DNA of 64,000 nt from Escherichia phage 310Ecol104PP (OR062946.1); one strand, 5' to 3'; shown: positions 2,145-15,748, counted from the first letter of the stretch. Notes: generated by a model from the sequence alone, not told the origin. Numbers and translations: made by a program.

Positions 2145-2894
2145 ATGGCAAACATTATTCGTTGTAAATTACCAGATGGTGTTCATCGTTTTAAACCATT
2201 TACGGTAGAAGATTATCGAGATTTTTTGTTAGTTCGAAACGATATAGAACATCGGTCACCACAAGAACAAAAAGAAATAATTGCTGATTTAATTGCTGAT
2301 TATTTTGGAGACTATCCGAAGACTTGGCAACCATTTATATTTTTGCAGGTATTTGTAGGGTCAATAGGTAAAACTAAAGTACCAGTCACATTTGTGTGTC
2401 CAAAATGTAAAAAAGAAAAGACAGTTCCATTTGAAATATATCAAAAAGAATTAAAGGAACCTGTTTTTGATGTAGCTAATGTTAAAATTAAATTAAAGTT
2501 TCCTTCTGAGTTTTATGAAAATAAAGCAAAGATGATTACTGAAAATATTCATTCTGTTCAAGTAGATGAAATGTGGTATGATTGGAAGGAAATTAGCGAG
2601 TCCAGTCAAATAGAACTCGTTGACGCCATCGAGATAGAAACATTAGAAAAAATTCTCGATGCAATGAATCCTATTAATTTAACTCTACATATGTCATGCT
2701 GTAATAAGTACATTAAAAAATACACTGATATAGTAGACGTGTTTAAGCTATTAGTTAACCCAGATGAGATATTTACTTTTTATCAAATTAATCACACACT
2801 CGTAAAAAGCAATTATAGCTTAAATTCAATAATGAAAATGATTCCTGCTGAGCGCGGATTCGTATTAAAACTGATTGAGAAGGATAAACAATAA
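2145..2894 (+). CDS. 51: baseplate hub assembly protein gp51
   Basis: 249-aa ORF, size and synteny match T4 gp51. Confidence 0.85.
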
Positions 2895-4069
2895 TGAGTA
2901 TGTTGCAACGCCCCGGATATCCAAATCTCAGCGTTAAATTATTTGATAGCTACGACGCTTGGAGTAATAATAGATTTGTTGAATTAGCTGCTACTATTAC
3001 CACATTAACTATGCGTGATTCTCTTTATGGCCGAAATGAAGGAATGCTGCAGTTTTATGATTCTAAAAACATCCATACAAAAATGGATGGAAATGAAATA
3101 ATTCAGATTTCTGTAGCTAATGCAAATGATATTAATAATGTTAAAACACGAATTTATGGATGTAAGCATTTTTCCGTGTCAGTAGATTCAAAAGGTGATA
3201 ACATCATTGCTATTGAATTGGGAACTATTCATTCTATAGAAAATCTTAAATTTGGTAGACCATTTTTCCCTGATGCAGGTGAATCTATAAAAGAAATGCT
3301 TGGTGTCATTTATCAGGATCGCACATTATTAACTCCAGCAATAAATGCTATAAATGCTTATGTTCCTGATATTCCATGGACTAGCACATTTGAAAACTAT
3401 TTGTCATATGTAAGAGAAGTTGCTCTAGCTGTAGGAAGCGACAAATTTGTATTTGTATGGCAAGACATCATGGGAGTTAACATGATGGACTATGATATGA
3501 TGATAAATCAAGAACCATATCCAATGATTGTCGGTGAGCCATCTTTAATAGGTCAATTCATCCAAGAATTAAAATACCCATTAGCATATGATTTTGTTTG
3601 GTTGACTAAATCGAATCCTCACAAACGCGACCCAATGAAAAATGCTACTATCTATGCTCATTCATTTTTAGATTCTTCATTGCCAATGATTACTACAGGA
3701 AAGGGTGAAAACTCTATTGTAGTGTCAAGGTCAGGTGCTTATTCTGAAATGACTTATAGGAATGGATATGAAGAAGCTATTCGTCTTCAAACTATGGCAC
3801 AATATGACGGTTATGCTAAATGTTCTACTGTCGGTAATTTTAACTTGACTCCTGGCGTTAAAATTATTTTTAATGATAGTAAAAACCAATTTAAAACAGA
3901 ATTTTACGTTGATGAAGTTATCCATGAATTATCCAATAATAATTCAGTAACTCATCTATATATGTTCACTAATGCAACGAAACTGGAAACAATAGACCCA
4001 GTTAAGGTTAAAAATGAATTTAAATCTGATACTACCACTGAAGAAAGTAGTTCTTCCAATAAGCAATAA
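2894..4069 (+). CDS. 27: baseplate hub protein gp27
   Basis: 391-aa ORF, size and synteny match T4 gp27. Confidence 0.9.
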
Positions 4070-4547
4070 AGAAGTTTCTATTCCTAAAATGGGTCTTAAA
4101 CATTATAACATTTTAAAGGATGTTAAAGGTCCTGATGAAAATTTAAAACTTCTTATTGATTCTATTTGTCCGAATTTGTCACCAGCAGAAGTTGATTTCG
4201 TTTCTATTCATTTATTGGAATTTAATGGAAAGATTAAATCTCGTAAAGAAATAGATGGCTATACTTATGACATTAATGATGTTTATGTATGCCAAAGATT
4301 GGAATTTCAATACCAAGGAAATACATTTTATTTTAGACCTCCTGGAAAATTTGAACAATTTTTAACGGTGAGCGATATGTTATCTAAATGCTTGCTTAAG
4401 GTCAATGATGAAGTTAAAGAAATTAATTTTCTTGAGATGCCAGCATTCGTTTTAAAATGGGCAAATGATATTTTTACAACTTTAGCAATTCCTGGCCCTA
4501 ATGGTCCAATAACCGGAATTGGCAATATTATTGGATTATTTGAATGA
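4014..4547 (+). CDS. 28: baseplate hub distal protein gp28
   Basis: 177-aa ORF overlapping the gene 27 end by 56 nt in another frame. Confidence 0.85.
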
Positions 4548-6316
4548 AAAAGCCACAAGAAATGCAAACGATGCGTAGAAAAGTTATTTCAGATAATAAA
4601 CCAACACAGGAAGCGGCTAAATCCGCTTCTAACACTTTATCTGGACTTAACGATATATCTACGAAATTGGATGATGCTCAAGCTGCTTCTGAGTTAATTG
4701 CTCAAACTGTCGAAGAAAAATCGAATGAAATAATTGGAGCAATTGACAACGTAGAAAGCGCAGTGAGTGATACTACTGCTGGTTCTGAGTTAATTGCTGA
4801 AACCGTTGAAATTGGCAATAATATTAATAAAGAAATCGGTGAATCACTCGGGAGCAAATTAGATAAATTAACAAGTTTACTAGAGCAAAAAATTCAGACA
4901 GCTGGAATTCAACAAACAGGAACTAGTTTAGCCACGGTTGAAAGCGCTATTCCTGTTAAAGTTGTTGAGGACGATACAGCTGAATCTGTGGGTCCTTTAT
5001 TACCGGCTCCTGAAGCAGTTAATAATGATCCTGATGCTGATTTTTTCCCTACCCCTCAGCCAGTCGAACCTAAACAAGAATCGCCAGAAGAAAAACAGAA
5101 AAAAGACGCATTTAACTTAAAATTATCTCAAGCTTTAGATAAATTAACAAAGACTGTTGATTTCGGATTTAAGAAATCTATTTCAATTACTGATAAAATA
5201 TCAAGCATGCTATTTAAGTATACCGTCAGTGCTGCTATTGAAGCTGCTAAAATGACTGCAATGATATTGGCTGTTGTTGTTGGAATAGATCTACTGATGG
5301 TTCACTTTAAATATTGGTCAGATAAATTTTCAAAAGCCTGGGATTTATATAGTACTGATTTTACTAAATTCTCTAGCGAAACCGGAACATGGGGTCCTTT
5401 ATTACAGAGCATCTTTGATTCTATTGATAAAATTAAACAACTTTGGGAAGCGGGAGATTGGGGTGGATTGACAACAGCTATCATAGAAGGACTTGGAAGT
5501 GTTCTTTTTAATTTAGGAGAGCTTATTCAATTAGGTATGGCTAAATTATCTGCAGCAATTCTTCGAGTCATTCCTGGTATGAAGGATACTGCTGATGAAG
5601 TAGAAGGAAGAGCATTGGAAAATTTCCAAAATTCTACTGGAGCATCTCTCAATAAAGAAGACCAAGAAAAAGTTGCAAATTATCAAGATAAACGAATGAA
5701 CGGAGACCTTGGTCCGATAGCAAAAGGATTAGATAAAATTGCTAATTGGAAAACTCGTGCATCTAATTGGATTCGCGGTGTTGATAATAAAGAAGCACTA
5801 ACTACCGACGAAGAACGTGCAGCAGAAGAAGAAAAATTAAAGCAGCTTTCACCTGAAGAAAGAAAAAATGCTTTAATGAAGGCTAATGAAGCACGTGCCG
5901 CGATGATTCGTTTTGAAAAATATGCTGATTCAGCTGATATGAGTAAAGACTCAACGGTTAAATCTGTTGAATCTGCCTATGAAGACCTTAAAAAACGGAT
6001 GGATGACCCGGATTTAAACAATTCACCGGCAGTTAAAAAAGAACTTGCTGCTAGATTTTCTAAAATTGATGCTACTTATCAAGAGCTCAAGAAAAATCAG
6101 CCTAATGCCAAACCTGAAACTTCTGCTAAATCGCCAGAAGCGAAACAGGTCCAGGTTATTGAAAAGAACAAAGCACAGCAAGCTCCTGTTCAGCAAGCAT
6201 CTCCTTCAATCAATAATACTAATAATGTTGTTAAGAAAAATACTGTCGTTCATAATATGACACCTGTAACAAGCACAACTGCTCCTGGTGTATTTGATGC
6301 GACTGGAGTTAATTAA
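4544..6316 (+). CDS. 29: baseplate hub / tail-length determining protein gp29
   Basis: 590-aa ORF with internal repeats (AASELIAQTVE.. / AGSELIAETVE..); ATGA overlap with gene 28. Confidence 0.9.
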   Translation: MKKPQEMQTMRRKVISDNKPTQEAAKSASNTLSGLNDISTKLDDAQAASELIAQTVEEKSNEIIGAIDNVESAVSDTTAGSELIAETVEIGNNINKEIGESLGSKLDKLTSLLEQKIQTAGIQQTGTSLATVESAIPVKVVEDDTAESVGPLLPAPEAVNNDPDADFFPTPQPVEPKQESPEEKQKKDAFNLKLSQALDKLTKTVDFGFKKSISITDKISSMLFKYTVSAAIEAAKMTAMILAVVVGIDLLMVHFKYWSDKFSKAWDLYSTDFTKFSSETGTWGPLLQSIFDSIDKIKQLWEAGDWGGLTTAIIEGLGSVLFNLGELIQLGMAKLSAAILRVIPGMKDTADEVEGRALENFQNSTGASLNKEDQEKVANYQDKRMNGDLGPIAKGLDKIANWKTRASNWIRGVDNKEALTTDEERAAEEEKLKQLSPEERKNALMKANEARAAMIRFEKYADSADMSKDSTVKSVESAYEDLKKRMDDPDLNNSPAVKKELAARFSKIDATYQELKKNQPNAKPETSAKSPEAKQVQVIEKNKAQQAPVQQASPSINNTNNVVKKNTVVHNMTPVTSTTAPGVFDATGVN

Positions 6317-8384: not shown

Positions 8385-8388
8385 CAAT

Positions 8389-8415
8389 GGGGACCTTTCG
8401 GTCCCCATATTTTTA
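8389..8415. terminator. bidirectional intrinsic terminator between gene 54 and the convergent 96-aa ORF
   Basis: GGGGACC-tttc-GGTCCCC hairpin followed by T-run. Confidence 0.6.
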
Positions 8416-8703
8416 TTTACGGAATGAAATAAAAGCAGCAACTGAAGCAACTAAACTGTCTTCAATATAAACCTCAATTTTTACCGGAGCTTCTGACTCA
8501 AATTTACCTGTTACTACACCTTGGAAAATACTTTCAGTCTGTTCTGGCTTTAAAAAATTTTCAGAAGGAAAAATTCCGAACTTTTTATCTGTTCCAAAAA
8601 TTTTGATAAATTCATCGTAAACTGCTTCATTAAAAGCATTATCAGCAGGAATAACGCCTTCAACTACAAGTTCTTGACCTAAAAAGCGCAAAGAAGATTT
8701 CAT
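8413..8703 (-). CDS. hypothetical 96-aa protein (alt.-3 position)
   Basis: ORF downstream of the Alt paralog; preceded by GAGGA Shine-Dalgarno and an early-type promoter. Confidence 0.5.
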   Translation of the reverse strand: MKSSLRFLGQELVVEGVIPADNAFNEAVYDEFIKIFGTDKKFGIFPSENFLKPEQTESIFQGVVTGKFESEAPVKIEVYIEDSLVASVAAFISFRK

Positions 8704-8734: not shown

Positions 8735-8764
8735 ACTATAACACAACACGAGGGACTTGTAAAC
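8735..8764 (-). promoter_or_regulatory. early-type promoter (GTTTAC -35, 18-nt spacer, TATAGT -10)
   Basis: Read on minus strand; near-identical copy upstream of alc at 24035-24064. Confidence 0.5.
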
Positions 8765-10821
8765 TACATCTTGAACTTTTTAGACATTCCGTTGATGTTA
8801 ATCAAAGAAGCCAAGATTTGAGAAACTTCGTTTTCCTCTTCTTTTGATTCTTCTACAAGGAATTGATTAAATCCAGCCATTGGACGAACTTCACCAGTTT
8901 CCATTAAATGGTCGCCATCATATACTGATTCTTCTAATTGTTCAGAAGGAGGAACGATTGTACCTTCGATTAGATACTTGTTATAAGCAGTTTCTTTCAT
9001 AAAGTACGTACTTACTTTATTAATCTTCAGTAAAATTCCACGCGGTAGAATAACTTCAGCTTCTGATGGAAATCCTGATAAATGACCTGGAACGATAACT
9101 TTGATTCGCTCAGCTCCTTTAATTACCATACCCACGCTAGTTTCAGCATCTTCAATGGCATATGTAGAATGACTACCCATATGCATTAAATCTTCTGCAT
9201 CAACGGAACCTTCTCCTTCGCCAGAAAATACTGCGCCGGAATCATCTAGAGCCATATAGTTTTTACCATGCTCACCGAAGATATTTGGTTTAAGTGATGT
9301 CGATACGAAGTTCTTGAAATAGAACATTTTGTTTTCAATGTTATGACGCAAAGTTTTAAAGGTAACTTCTTGTCCACGGTAAAGTGTAGTTCCTGGAGGA
9401 AGAACTGATCCTTTGGCAAAGGCAGAATCCAACGTCTCGATGTGCTTAATAGCTCGTTCCATATATTCTTCACGGGTAGAATCTGGTTTACCCAAAAGGA
9501 ACGAGTTCATTTCAACATATGAATCTGCACAATAATCTTCAATTACATCAGATTCAGCTTGGGTTAATCCTTTTGGAGTTACTTCGGTGCTTGCGTATTC
9601 ATATGCCTGGGCAGCAGATTCATTAATCAATTTATAAATGCCATTCATGACAAATTGAATAATAGCTGTCTTTTCATCTGGCGTAGCTTTAGAACCTTTA
9701 ACTAAATCATTAATAATTTTCTTAATAACATCAAAGCTATTAGAAATATTAATGTCAGCAAGATCGCTTAAAATTTTATCAGTTTTATAATCAAAGAATT
9801 CTTTATTCTTTAAATATTCTTGAGAACCTTGATATGTTATATCGCTCTGCAACTTGATAGATGGATCACGTAAACGTGCATGGGCTAATGCAATATGATT
9901 TCGGAAGTTTTCTAGTTCGTAATCGCTAGATTTAAAACGAGAAGCACTTCTCATACCACCAATAGCTCCTTTGCTGAAGTTTGAACCAATCTGAATAACG
10001 CCAGAGTTCATTGGTCCTTCTGCTTTATACACCGGAACTTTAGATTCAAACTCTTGATATTTCTTAGCAGCGAAGCTATCACCATGAAGTGAAGCATCGA
10101 CAGTAGAATATTGAGCTTGTGCTGCTAATCGACGACTAATTTTAGTTTTCTGAATAACAGCTTGATCAGTGCGCTTATCATTTTCTAAAGCAATAGAAGC
10201 AGCAACAGCGACAGCTTTAGGAACAGCATTACCTGTTTTAACGTCTACATAAACATCACCAACCTTTGATTCAACTTTTGTGAATAACTCAGTTGAAATA
10301 GGAGGTACACCTGGAATGTCTTCTAAATTGGCATTTTTACGGTAAACCATAATATATGCATATTTCTTATCATAGTCCCAGATTTCCTTTAAGAGAACAT
10401 ATCGACCTGCTCCTTTAGTACGTACTAAACGGTCAGCAATAACTTGCATTTGACGAGCTGCGCCATTTGTTTTACTCTTTAGTACGCGGAATAGGCATGC
10501 GTCGATTTTATACTGTTTCATTGTTTGAAGAGCAGTATCAAAAACAGCATTAATGACGCCAATTGGATTTCCACCCAAGTTTCTAAGCTTAACCAGCGAT
10601 AATTTCTCGTTGACACCTATCATTACGATATGCATCATTTTATCGCCCGGCTTAACGTTTTTATTTGTATCACCGCCAGAGGTGTATGTACAAAATCTAA
10701 ATCCAGGAAGCACGCTTTCTTCACCGGCTTGAATAGCAAAAATTTGAGGTATTTTATGCTTAGGATTTAAGTTAACAACCGGCGCCGAAGCGCCGTCAAA
10801 TAATTCTGTAATAAGTTCCAT
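8764..10821 (-). CDS. Alt-family ADP-ribosyltransferase paralog (685 aa)
   Basis: N-terminus MELITELFD.. nearly identical to Alt; C-terminal half has R-S-E motifs (LYRGQ, FVSTSL, EAEVILP). Confidence 0.8.
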   Translation of the reverse strand: MELITELFDGASAPVVNLNPKHKIPQIFAIQAGEESVLPGFRFCTYTSGGDTNKNVKPGDKMMHIVMIGVNEKLSLVKLRNLGGNPIGVINAVFDTALQTMKQYKIDACLFRVLKSKTNGAARQMQVIADRLVRTKGAGRYVLLKEIWDYDKKYAYIMVYRKNANLEDIPGVPPISTELFTKVESKVGDVYVDVKTGNAVPKAVAVAASIALENDKRTDQAVIQKTKISRRLAAQAQYSTVDASLHGDSFAAKKYQEFESKVPVYKAEGPMNSGVIQIGSNFSKGAIGGMRSASRFKSSDYELENFRNHIALAHARLRDPSIKLQSDITYQGSQEYLKNKEFFDYKTDKILSDLADINISNSFDVIKKIINDLVKGSKATPDEKTAIIQFVMNGIYKLINESAAQAYEYASTEVTPKGLTQAESDVIEDYCADSYVEMNSFLLGKPDSTREEYMERAIKHIETLDSAFAKGSVLPPGTTLYRGQEVTFKTLRHNIENKMFYFKNFVSTSLKPNIFGEHGKNYMALDDSGAVFSGEGEGSVDAEDLMHMGSHSTYAIEDAETSVGMVIKGAERIKVIVPGHLSGFPSEAEVILPRGILLKINKVSTYFMKETAYNKYLIEGTIVPPSEQLEESVYDGDHLMETGEVRPMAGFNQFLVEESKEEENEVSQILASLININGMSKKFKM

Positions 10822-10824
10822 GAT

Positions 10825-12921
10825 TTATCCTTGAACGAACTTGTAAGGCATGTTTGTAATATCTATGCAAGACGCAATAATTCCAAGAGATGATTCTACT
10901 TTCTGTTTAATATTTGATGAAACAAATGATGCAAAGTCAACTCTGTCTTCTATTTCAATATCACCTGTCATTGCAACTACTTCGCCGGTTTCCATTAAAT
11001 GGTCTCCGTCATAGATTACCGATTCAGTGAGTTCTTCTGTGGTCATAACTTCAGCTTGAATGAGTTTTGTATTATTAGACGTGGTTCCGTCATTATTAGA
11101 AGCATCAGTTATTTTATTAACTTTAACCATCAATCCGCGCGGTAGAATAACTTCAGCTTCTGTTGCTATTCCGAGACTTCCTGGATATACAACATTAACT
11201 TTATGAGCTCCATCAATTGCCCATCCTATTTGAACTTTAACGTATTCAGGATTTTCTTTATACGCTCTTATTTCGTTTGGATTAATAGTTATTCCTTCTT
11301 CATTTTTATCAACCGTTAATTCGTTACGAGCTTCTGGTTCTAAAAGACCAATACCAGCATGTGTAATTCCAAAACGCCCAAAAATGATAGGAGTTAAAGA
11401 AGTAGATACAAAATTTCTGAAATAGAACACTTTATTTTTAACTAGTGCTTCGTATATAGGAGCAGTCATACTTTGAGCACGATAAACTGTGATGCCTTCC
11501 GGTATGCGGTCACCATTTTCAAAAGCTGAATCTAAGTTATTTATAGCAGATTCAATTTCTTTTTCACTCATTACATCATATCGTTCTGGATTGTAACGAC
11601 CTAAAAGAAGATTATTAATGTCAGTATATCCTGAACCACAATACTCTCTAATGCCGCGCTTTTGTGATGGAGTATATTTAGAACCATCACGGGCAATAGT
11701 AATATCAATCATTGGACCTGCACCAATTCCAGAAAAACTATAAATCATTCTTTTGAGGAATTTAGTTTTTGCTGCGTTCCAGGAATTTTTAGTCATTTCT
11801 TCCCAGACTTCATCTGGCTGCCCTTTACGAGTTTTATTATGTTTATCAAGCCAATTATCTTTATATTCTTCAAAGAGTTGATTAACAGCTGCTGCGTATT
11901 TCTCTAAACATTTTATTGAAGTAGTTGGTTCATTTTTAATCGCATTAAGAATTACATCTTTAATTTTTTCAGAAACTTCATTAACCTCACTTTTTGAAAA
12001 GAATTTATAGTCATAATGAAGTTCATTCGCAGTTCCTTCGGCAATAATTTTTGCTGCCTTAGTTTTAGAAGCTAATGAATTAATTCCAAGCTTCATTTCT
12101 TCTGCTTCGGGAATTAAAGGAGCGGTAGCAGGTTTATTGAAATTAGCTGCGGTAGATTCATACTTCTGGAATAATTCACTTTCAAATCTAGAAGATTCCA
12201 ATGATTGACTTTGCGCAATTGCTCTACGGGAAATTTTAACTTTAACGATTACAGCTTGGTCAGAACGTTTATCATTTTCTTGTGCAATAGATGCTGCAAT
12301 TGCCTCATTTTTAGTTACTTGAGCTCCAGTATCTTTATTGATATAAACATCGCCGACTTTCGATTCAACTTTAGTAAAGAGCTCGGTACTAATTTCCGGA
12401 ACTCCTGGAATGTCTTCTAGTGATACATTTTTGCGATGTATAAGAATATATGCATACTTTTTATCATAATCCCAGAGTTCCTTAAGAAGGACGTATCTGC
12501 CACCTGAACGACTACGGATAAGTCTATCAGCAATAACTTGAATTTGTCGAGCTTGACCAGCGGTTTTAGACTTAAGAATACGAAGCATACAAGCATCAAT
12601 TTTATACTGACGCATTGTTTGCATTGCAACAGTAAAAACTGAATTGATATAATTAATTGGGCTTGGACCGAGACCTTTTAATTTAGCAATTGAACCTTTG
12701 GCAGTTAATGTAAAAGGAACAATATGCATCATTTTATCGCCCATCTTTAAATCGCGATTAGTATCACCTCCAGATGTATAGGTGCATAAACGAAAGCCTG
12801 GTTGTTCAATTGCATCATCAACACGAACTGAAAAAATTTGCGGTATTTTCTTCTTTGGATTTAAGTTTGTAATCGGAAGAGTAGTATCTTCGTCAAATAA
12901 TTCTGTAATAAGTTCCATCAT
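10825..12921 (-). CDS. alt: Alt ADP-ribosyltransferase, packaged into the head
   Basis: 698-aa ORF; N-terminal MELITELFDED capsid-targeting-like sequence; motifs VYRAQ, FVSTSL, EAEVILP; sits between 54 and 30. Confidence 0.9.
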   Translation of the reverse strand: MMELITELFDEDTTLPITNLNPKKKIPQIFSVRVDDAIEQPGFRLCTYTSGGDTNRDLKMGDKMMHIVPFTLTAKGSIAKLKGLGPSPINYINSVFTVAMQTMRQYKIDACMLRILKSKTAGQARQIQVIADRLIRSRSGGRYVLLKELWDYDKKYAYILIHRKNVSLEDIPGVPEISTELFTKVESKVGDVYINKDTGAQVTKNEAIAASIAQENDKRSDQAVIVKVKISRRAIAQSQSLESSRFESELFQKYESTAANFNKPATAPLIPEAEEMKLGINSLASKTKAAKIIAEGTANELHYDYKFFSKSEVNEVSEKIKDVILNAIKNEPTTSIKCLEKYAAAVNQLFEEYKDNWLDKHNKTRKGQPDEVWEEMTKNSWNAAKTKFLKRMIYSFSGIGAGPMIDITIARDGSKYTPSQKRGIREYCGSGYTDINNLLLGRYNPERYDVMSEKEIESAINNLDSAFENGDRIPEGITVYRAQSMTAPIYEALVKNKVFYFRNFVSTSLTPIIFGRFGITHAGIGLLEPEARNELTVDKNEEGITINPNEIRAYKENPEYVKVQIGWAIDGAHKVNVVYPGSLGIATEAEVILPRGLMVKVNKITDASNNDGTTSNNTKLIQAEVMTTEELTESVIYDGDHLMETGEVVAMTGDIEIEDRVDFASFVSSNIKQKVESSLGIIASCIDITNMPYKFVQG

Positions 12922-12942
12922 AGCCTCTCTAGTGTTTATTCT

Positions 12943-12950
12943 ATTTATAA
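12943..12950 (-). promoter_or_regulatory. late promoter upstream of alt
   Basis: TATAAATA on minus strand about 25 nt upstream of the alt ATG. Confidence 0.5.
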
Positions 12951-14619: not shown

Positions 14620-14885
14620 TGTTCATCCTTTAGAGTTTGGTTTACAGCTCTATTATAAATCAATTCATCATTAAGCTCAGTCAAAGACCTATGGTACGTG
14701 GTTCTAACTTTATTTCCTTGCATCCAGTGTTTGACGTAAATGAAACCTTGCTCTACACATTTTTTAAAAATTCGTTCGTCTTTTTGAGCTCGGAATTCTG
14801 GATTGCATCTAAAAAATTGATTTACGTGACCGTAATCACGTGTAGTATTACCTTCATTTTCATAAATAGTGTGAACGACAAACAT
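14616..14885 (-). CDS. hypothetical 89-aa protein (30.1 position)
   Basis: ORF overlapping the ligase start by 4 nt. Confidence 0.5.
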   Translation of the reverse strand: MFVVHTIYENEGNTTRDYGHVNQFFRCNPEFRAQKDERIFKKCVEQGFIYVKHWMQGNKVRTTYHRSLTELNDELIYNRAVNQTLKDEQ

Positions 14886-15748
14886 TAGAATGCTCCTTGG
14901 AAAATATTATCACCACTAGTAAATCTATTAAAATACCCTGCATCACCAGGCTTAGTATAACTCCACGTATGGAATGGATTCATATGATACGGGTGTGTAT
15001 AATATGGATTATATGGATGTGTATAATATGGATTATACGGATTAAATCCAGGAGTTCTCCAGGTAGTGTTCCAACGAAAAGAATCGTTTTTAACCATCTT
15101 CTCAATTACATCTTTTATAGCTTTTTCACTATCAAAACTTTCTTTATTTTCCTTCGGTGAAAAAAGCTTATTTTCTACATCATTCCATGTATAAACTCGC
15201 TGAGCGGTTTTTGGAATATTGTCACGCTCTCCTCGCGCCATCCAATAAACAGGAACATTTAATATTTCACTCGCATGATCGCAGTGGTGAGCGAGATCGT
15301 CAATATAACAAATTACGTTATATTTCTCTTTTGCCTTTTTGAACAACTCTTCTTTTGAAGAATCATGACCACACATCATTACTTCTGAGAAGGCACCAGG
15401 AAAAAGAGCATTCAAATTAAATTGACGATTCAACAGAGCGTCAATAGAATCACCCAACGCTGTAACAGCTACAAAATTATAATCTTCTTTTAATTTGTTA
15501 ATTACGCACAGGGCGTCTTTATATGGAGACAAATAACGAATAAAATCTGAACGATTGTATTTTTCAATTAACTTGACGCCAAGTTCTTCATCACAATTAA
15601 AGAGTTTACCCGGAGAAATAAATTTCTCATCTTGAATCATTTTTAAAATATGTTCTAACGGAAGATTATATTTCTGAGCAAAATAAGGAAGGCCTGATTG
15701 CCAGCTTAAACATACTCCATCAATATCAGTTAAAATAGTAGGCTTCAT
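14885..15748 (-). CDS. HAD-superfamily phosphatase-like protein with Tyr/Pro-rich C-terminal tail (30.2 position)
   Basis: N-terminal DIDGV motif typical of HAD hydrolases; tail NPYNPYYTHPYNPYYTHPY. Confidence 0.65.
   Translation of the reverse strand: MKPTILTDIDGVCLSWQSGLPYFAQKYNLPLEHILKMIQDEKFISPGKLFNCDEELGVKLIEKYNRSDFIRYLSPYKDALCVINKLKEDYNFVAVTALGDSIDALLNRQFNLNALFPGAFSEVMMCGHDSSKEELFKKAKEKYNVICYIDDLAHHCDHASEILNVPVYWMARGERDNIPKTAQRVYTWNDVENKLFSPKENKESFDSEKAIKDVIEKMVKNDSFRWNTTWRTPGFNPYNPYYTHPYNPYYTHPYHMNPFHTWSYTKPGDAGYFNRFTSGDNIFQGAF
14994..15037. repeat. 24-bp tandem duplication inside the 30.2 coding region
   Basis: tgtgtataatatggattata occurs twice with a 4-nt spacer, encoding the repeated peptide. 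Confidence 0.7.

Follow-up and report, generated by a model that had tools for sequence, protein, structure and literature searches.

Why would a phage carry two large ADP-ribosyltransferase (ART) genes side by side, and is the second of them a working enzyme with targets of its own? The question is raised by Escherichia phage 310Ecol104PP (OR062946.1), of which we analyzed a window of 64,000 nucleotides. Region 8764-12921 of this window is the alt locus of a T-even phage: alt.1 and DNA ligase (gene 30) lie upstream, alt.-3, gp54 and gp48 lie downstream, and the best database match to the locus is Escherichia phage AdolfPortmann, at 99.5% nucleotide identity. A first-pass annotation, made from the sequence alone, had described two tandem open reading frames (ORFs) here, and both are present, on the minus strand: alt, a T2/T6-type allele (10825..12921, 698 aa), and a second Alt paralogue of 685 aa (8764..10821), recognized by its ORF, BLASTP and Pfam and named alt.-2 in RB32 and T6. 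All features of the two genes are given on the minus (-) strand. The alt ORF opens with ATGATG, giving 698 aa from the first ATG and 697 aa from the second (12918, the T4 convention). The doublet also occurs in T4 alt, whose annotation starts at the second ATG, so the alt protein here is most likely 697 aa long and opens with MELITE.

Our answer is that the locus probably encodes two co-expressed, head-packaged, gp21-processed and injected arginine ARTs whose targets are at least partly different. The tandem arrangement as such is already known: this exact gene is annotated in hundreds of records, and alt duplications appear in comparative-genomics papers. What we add is the precise origin of the T4 fragments, a census in which T4 is the exception, the conserved sites for double processing and a cassette-like mosaicism.

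Two intact Alt paralogues

The two proteins are 41% identical over their full length (BLASTP, E = 3e-158), and this E value places their similarity far above chance. The first-pass annotation had noted a shared start and similarity through the first ~230 residues, and we find 68% identity over residues 1-238. It had further proposed that the proteins diverge beyond this point, in their catalytic halves, while keeping the ART motifs. The motifs are all there (YRAQ or YRGQ, FVSTSL, EAEVILPRG), but the catalytic core is not the most divergent part. Identity falls to 17% in the middle (residues 239-415), is 35% in the ART domain (416-628) and reaches 49% in the tail; divergence thus peaks in the helical middle (about aa 239-415), and conservation returns in the C-terminal tail. 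In the second gene, the N-domain with its 68% identity to that of alt (aa 7-238; 10108..10803) has an alpha/beta fold by alignment and model (pLDDT 83.5). It is followed by the helical middle (9577..10107), modeled as all helical with a pLDDT of 80-93, which is a candidate substrate-recognition region, and by the ART domain (8938..9576), delimited by Pfam, alignment and structure match. The alt protein has its N-domain at aa 7-238 (12205..12900; PF26846, Tevenvirinae_ADPRT, by Pfam annotation) and its Pfam ART domain (PF03496) at aa 379-630 (11029..11784).

Membership of the ART family is clear for both. PF03496 (ADPrib_exo_Tox) matches alt with 129.4 bits and the 685-aa protein with 71.8 bits, against a cut-off of 23.4, and both proteins align over their whole length with phrog_802 (“Alt-like RNA polymerase ADP-ribosyltransferase”); a scan of NCBIfam gave no matching model. 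Sequence and alignment place the catalytic motifs of the second gene at R482 (YRGQ; 9370-9381), S507-T-S509 (9295-9303) and E587-A-E589 (within 9037-9063), and those of alt at R480 (YRAQ; 11473-11484), STS (505-507; 11398-11406) and EAE (587-589; within 11134-11160). ExE, as opposed to QxE, is the motif of arginine-type ARTs. We aligned 20 sequences, comprising the 685 type, T4 Alt, the window alt, three paralogues from phage fDHCT2 and diverse metagenomic relatives. In all of them R482, S507, S509, E587 and E589 are invariant. On the evidence of BLASTP, Pfam and this alignment, both genes truly belong to the Alt family as paralogues, and their catalytic residues are intact.

An AlphaFold model of the 685-aa protein (mean pLDDT 74) shows an alpha/beta N-domain (12-227), confident helices (240-470), an ART core (470-628) and a disordered tail (629-685). 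A PDB search by sequence did not find a solved relative; in a Foldseek search with the model, Vis, C3, CDTa, VIP2 and iota Ia were the closest solved structures (probability 1.0, E down to 1e-6). Compared with its RB32 ortholog, the second gene has 46 synonymous and 5 nonsynonymous differences, a dN/dS of 0.028 that is low in each domain, and it is therefore under strong purifying selection. Motifs, selection and model each predict that the second gene is functional.

Prevalence of the second gene and origin of the T4 fragments

The first-pass annotation placed only fragmentary alt.-1 and alt.-2 ORFs at this position in T4, and supposed that an intact second enzyme may be unusual. It was right about T4, where alt is followed by two small ORFs, but the intact gene is the majority state. 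Using its C-terminal 442 residues as a tblastn query, we found the intact second gene in 401 phage records at ≥95% identity (95-99.5% at the protein level), including T2, T6 and RB32; identity then drops, with one record at 60-80% and all others below 60%. Contiguous matches to a query across the T4 junction came from 91 records, so the comparison is of about 401 records with the intact gene to 91 with a T4-type deletion. In RefSeq, T2, RB32, RB27 and many other entries each have a pair of genes labeled “Alt-like RNA polymerase ADP-ribosyltransferase.” RB32 and T6 carry the gene of the 685-aa ORF under the name alt.-2 (97.7% nucleotide identity over the locus), with the remark “apparent insertion in alt.-2; similar to alt.”

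How, then, did T4 come by its two small ORFs? Its alt.-1 and alt.-2 (NP_049810 and NP_049809) match residues 1-56 and 62-116 of the 685-aa protein at 95-96% identity. DNA alignment with T4 shows two changes. One A has been lost from a run of five (10658..10662; A4 in T4), a frameshift that parts alt.-1 from alt.-2, and 1,699 bp have been lost between two 9-nt repeats, CTAAAGAGT on the left (10474..10482), where the deletion starts, and CTAAAAAGT on the right (8775..8783), where it ends. The join is out of frame, and as a result T4 alt.-2 reads past the old stop into the promoter region of alt.-3. From the DNA alignment and the record counts we conclude that the intact gene is both the ancestral and the majority state, and that T4 is a deletion. 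The opposite history, an insertion into alt.-2 as remarked for RB32 and T6, is rejected by the 9-nt repeats flanking the 1,699 bp, the out-of-frame join, the additional frameshift and the presence of a full-length ortholog elsewhere. That ortholog is alt_1 of fDHCT2, which occupies the same position in another genus-level lineage and is 50% identical to the 685-aa protein; it shows that the second paralogue is old. Nolan et al. (2006, PMC1524935) read T4 alt.-1 and alt.-2 as paralogous duplications and reported a full-length duplicate in 44RR, and Jin et al. (2014, PMC4177764) described alt duplications in JS98, Bp7, Ac42 and ZZ1.

Prohead processing sites

The gp21 cuts in T4 Alt were mapped by mass spectrometry (Ali et al. 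2017, PMC5694885) to ITE-6 and LTE-619; they remove 6 N-terminal and 63 C-terminal residues and leave 68.2 kDa. Only these two propeptides are known to be removed, and the ~230-residue N-domain stays in the mature enzyme (PMC5694885). Both proteins of the window keep the gp21 motifs: each has ITE-6, and the C-terminal motif is LTE-632 in alt and LEE-631 in the second protein. It is the motifs that are read here, and not cleavage itself. Across the 20 aligned sequences E6 and E631 (685-aa numbering) are invariant, with L or I at position -2. The N-terminal propeptide MELITE lies at 12901..12918 in alt, ending at the site mapped in T4 Alt (PMC5694885), and at 10804..10821 in the second gene, as read from sequence and alignment. 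The predicted C-terminal propeptides are aa 633-697 of alt (10828..11022), by homology to LTE-619 of T4 Alt (PMC5694885), and aa 632-685 of the second protein (8767..8928), by alignment; the latter coincides with the disordered tail of the model (pLDDT <50 for 629-685). From the published sites we compute 68.2 kDa for T4 Alt, in agreement with the published value, and predict mature masses of 70.1 kDa for alt and 69.2 kDa for the 685-aa protein. We take this as good, though indirect, evidence that the prohead protease encounters the second protein, which would hence be built into the head core like Alt, of which a T4 head holds about 40 copies (PMC9026906).

Probable co-expression of the two genes

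Co-expression, as proposed in the first-pass annotation, also fits the layout of the locus. The alt stop codon TAA (10825-10827) is separated from the next ATG (10819-10821) by the 3 nt ATC, as had been read before (junction 10819..10827), and AGGA lies 6 nt 5′ of the second-gene ATG, overlapping the last alt codons. By pattern search, a T4-type late promoter box, TATAAATA, lies at 12942..12949(-), 21 nt 5′ of the alt ATGATG. Neither gene has another box of this type immediately 5′ of it, and T4 has the same late box upstream of alt. Late boxes in the whole window are not above chance (10 found, 9.3 expected), so the support for the alt box is its position. Between alt and the second gene, pattern searches found neither a late box nor, on the coding (minus) strand, a terminator-like site. 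With a late promoter 5′ of alt only and a 3-nt gap with its own Shine-Dalgarno sequence (SD), the two genes are very probably co-transcribed. A second TATAAATA box occurs within alt at 11538-11545(-), 717 nt 5′ of the second gene, and may be an internal late promoter or a chance match.

Exchange of catalytic cassettes

The window alt is a T4-like N-domain and tail enclosing a divergent middle and ART cassette. It is 70% identical to T4 Alt overall, with 99% in the N-domain, 65% in the ART domain and 94% in the tail. At the DNA level, nt 1-720 and 1981 to the end are 97-100% identical to T4 alt, whereas nt 721-1890 are only 46-83% identical to it; nt 1261-1890 are instead 84-99% identical to alt_3 of fDHCT2. 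The fDHCT2 locus (L003, 1096-7356) holds three tandem alt paralogues. Its alt_3 shares 94% of the ART domain with the window alt despite an N-domain identity of 45%, which indicates that a catalytic cassette was transferred between genera. Orthologs of the 685 type are fDHCT2 alt_1 and the 707-aa JS10-type Alt; with alt_1 the 685 type shares 44% of the N-domain, 44% of the middle, 57% of the ART domain and 67% of the tail. N-domains are 68% identical within the genome here and 66-88% within fDHCT2, as against 42-45% between orthologous catalytic types across genera. On this evidence the N-domain follows the phage lineage, either by gene conversion between neighbors or by co-evolution with a phage partner. 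The catalytic cassettes, to judge by these comparisons, are old, distinct types that move between lineages.

Unequal crossing-over between the neighbors, within the N-domain, has also left single hybrid genes with an Alt N-terminus and a 685-type body. In ECML-134, a complete isolate genome, and in SCS4, one gene joins Alt residues 1 to ~157 to a 685-type body and sits between alt.1 and alt.-3, and two long metagenomic contigs carry single hybrids with breakpoints elsewhere. The hybrid genes are at 2742-4802 of the ECML-134 locus (L007), 4001-6061 of L005, 4001-6055 of L006 and 5001-7061 of L004. Crossovers fall at about aa 50, 157, 195 and 222, and a fifth at about aa 105 in protein P0004. 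These varied positions indicate that the tandem paralogues have repeatedly recombined unequally. Apart from the isolate genomes ECML-134 and SCS4, the sources are metagenome or SRA assemblies. Could the hybrids (P0003-P0006) be assembly chimeras? We reject this explanation. The longest exact stretch common to both window genes is 28 nt, which argues against simple assembly collapse at k = 99, and the same kind of hybrid in the isolates ECML-134 and SCS4 means that at least some hybrids are real. The Logan contig L004 ends right after its hybrid gene and is ambiguous.

Distribution of the N-domain

For proteins sharing 98% identity with the 685-aa protein, precomputed annotation assigns the N-domain to PF26846 (Tevenvirinae_ADPRT). 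When 1.84 billion representatives were searched exhaustively with phmmer, only 69 clusters were returned, nearly all with proteins of 600-712 aa and the domain at the N-terminus. We scanned 10 outlier or distant members, and in seven of them an ART domain exceeds the Pfam threshold; Pfam gave no ART match for a 221-aa protein or for two distant members that are full length (485 and 541 aa). A 461-aa N-domain protein gives a sub-threshold, partial ART match only. Among the distant relatives from uncultured phages are P0183 (485 aa), P0184 (541 aa) and P0187 (786 aa). The ART of P0183 looks degenerate, with LYK, TSCS and only one Glu, in SEIVLPRG. In P0184 a Pfam scan did not detect an ART domain; this protein shares a different middle module with P0187, whose end is an ART domain.

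A Foldseek search of BFVD with the N-domain of the 685-aa protein (10105-10821, -) listed Alt homologs first and then large uncharacterized proteins of unrelated phages, weak matches at E 1e-9 to 1e-4 and 12-16% identity. These come from Dickeya phage RC-2014, Erwinia phage phiEa2809, Vibrio phage VP-1 and Agrobacterium phage Atu_ph07, with one zeta-toxin and one deaminase annotation among them. Profile search and tblastn did not confirm a link to zeta-toxin or deaminase proteins by sequence: the N-domain profile found 9 proteins only and no new architectures, and tblastn with the 541-aa P0184 matched only the N-domains of Alt genes. We therefore rejected the idea of the N-domain as a general delivery module on other effectors, given 69 clusters nearly all of 600-712 aa, no new architectures and a BFVD lead that is unverified.

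Two probable injected enzymes and the alternatives

Taken together, the locus is best explained as a late-transcribed operon of two genes for full-length, paralogous Alt-type arginine mono-ADP-ribosyltransferases, a T2/T6-type alt followed by the ancestral, intact form of T4 alt.-1/alt.-2. Each protein is composed of a MELITE propeptide, a ~230-residue alpha/beta N-domain that seems confined to Tevenvirinae ARTs, a helical middle, an R-S-E ART core and a disordered C-terminal propeptide. By analogy with T4 Alt, the prohead core may incorporate both proteins, and gp21 would trim them at ITE-6 and at an L-x-E site near residue 631/632 to mature enzymes of ~70 and ~69 kDa. Both would then enter the host with the DNA and ADP-ribosylate arginines of host proteins using NAD+. 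Since the middle region and the STS-to-ExE loops differ between the enzymes, their target sets are predicted to differ at least partly.

Several points weigh against this interpretation. The head-targeting signal of Alt has yet to be mapped (PMC5694885), so the conserved termini make packaging plausible but do not prove it, and the name “head-targeting” that the first-pass annotation gave the Alt N-termini is best taken as inferred. In the literature we found no proteomic report of the second paralogue in virions and no experimental work on its packaging, activity or targets. Moreover, 91 records, T4 among them, are without the second enzyme, and in ECML-134 the first catalytic module is missing. 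These natural losses imply that each enzyme is dispensable, and the two could be largely redundant.

Redundancy is accordingly the strongest alternative, although we hold it to be unlikely: the second paralogue would be an active ART with the same targets as Alt (RNA polymerase alpha Arg265 and others), serving as dose or back-up. Architecture, termini and the arginine-type ExE motif are alike in both enzymes, and either gene has been lost in nature, by the T4-type deletion in 91 records and in the ECML-134 hybrid without the alt catalytic module. However, the ART cores are only 35% and the middle regions only 17% identical, and the catalytic types stay distinct across genera (57% for the 685 type and fDHCT2 alt_1, 94% for alt and alt_3). 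With gene conversion acting on the neighboring N-domains, such long upkeep of two catalytic types is not expected under pure redundancy. We give still less credence to a second paralogue that is made late and left unpackaged, acting in the producing cell like ModA and ModB or in a noncatalytic role. The lack of proteomic evidence in virions and the unmapped head-targeting signal of Alt (PMC5694885) would accommodate it; however, both gp21 motifs and the Alt-specific N-domain are conserved, which makes little sense in a protein that does not meet the prohead protease, the catalytic residues are invariant at a dN/dS of 0.03, and expression is from the alt late promoter. A decaying duplicate or pseudo-enzyme, the state suggested by the T4 fragments, is effectively refuted, as is a pseudogene or chance ORF, by the full length of the ORF here, the conservation of about 401 copies at 95-99.5% identity, the invariant catalytic motifs and the dN/dS of 0.028.

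A broader reading is tentative, and we would not yet call it likely. The alt locus may be a cassette system in which a lineage-specific N-domain and the two propeptides form a constant head-incorporation unit and the middle/ART cassettes are interchangeable by recombination. Most T-even phages would then inject two or three ARTs that differ in their host targets, and the 685 type would have one of its own. T4 Alt is reported to act on MazF. By analogy, the 685-type target could be a host defense or translation factor; the loss in T4 would add to the differences between T4 and T2/T6 in sensitivity to host defenses; and the weak structural matches of the N-domain to N-terminal parts of large zeta-toxin and deaminase proteins would extend the delivery module beyond ARTs.

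Why does this matter? Knowledge of injected phage ARTs comes nearly all from T4, a natural knock-out of the second enzyme, which has been kept by T2, T6 and about four in five of the sequenced Tequatrovirus relatives. The alt allele here also has another catalytic cassette than T4 Alt, and so target lists drawn up for T4 may not transfer to most T-even phages. The three natural variants, with two genes, a T4-type deletion or an ECML-134-type hybrid, are ready material for studying the role of each injected enzyme.

Neighboring features

Directly 3′ of the second gene is an early-type promoter at 8763-8735(-), with GTTTAC, a spacer of 17 or 18 nt depending on the placement of the -35 hexamer, and TG-n-TATAGT; it serves alt.-3. 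The alt.-3 gene itself (8413-8703(-), 96 aa, phrog_1739, DUF5498) directly follows the second alt gene, behind this promoter. In T4, mutants with a C-terminal extension of Alt.-3 evade the CmdTAC defense system by blocking CmdA degradation (PMC11618068). Between the convergent gene 54 (+) and alt.-3 (-), at 8387-8408 and on both strands, is a perfect 9-bp GC-rich hairpin, ATGGGGACC TTTC GGTCCCCAT, which looks like a bidirectional terminator. On the other side of the locus, a gene 30.2-like ORF at 14885-15748(-) ends with a short tandem peptide repeat, NPYNPYYTHPYNPYYTHPYHMNPF.

Comparison with known systems

With the C3, VIP2, iota, CDTa and Vis toxins (R-S-E clade, PF03496) the Alt proteins have the catalytic fold and motifs in common. 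Identity is about 15-20%; the toxins are secreted by bacteria and have neither the Tevenvirinae N-domain nor gp21-processed termini. ModA and ModB of T4 are phage R-S-E ARTs that act on host transcription and translation proteins (PMC5512222). By their description they are set apart from Alt as small, early proteins of about 200 aa, which are not packaged and have no N-domain.

The closest characterized system is T4 Alt (gpAlt, NP_049811), a head-packaged arginine mono-ADP-ribosyltransferase encoded at the same locus, between alt.1/gene 30 and alt.-3/gene 54. It has the same domain order, gp21 sites at both ends, the R, STS and ExE motifs and the late promoter. The window alt is an allele of T4 Alt but with a different middle and ART cassette, and the 685-aa protein is only 41% identical to it. 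ADP-ribosylation of RNA polymerase alpha at Arg265 is known for the T4 Alt allele only, and throughout the literature we found published biochemistry for this allele alone, whose catalytic cassette differs from both window enzymes. The T4 annotation speaks of a “duplication of the first part of gene alt,” and like the remark in RB32 and T6 it reads the history from T4 outwards. Seen across other T4-like phages, a tandem array is no exception: 44RR, RB49, JS98, Bp7, Ac42, ZZ1 and fDHCT2 have two or three Alt-like genes at the same locus (PMC1524935, PMC4177764), and the combination of catalytic types varies by phage.

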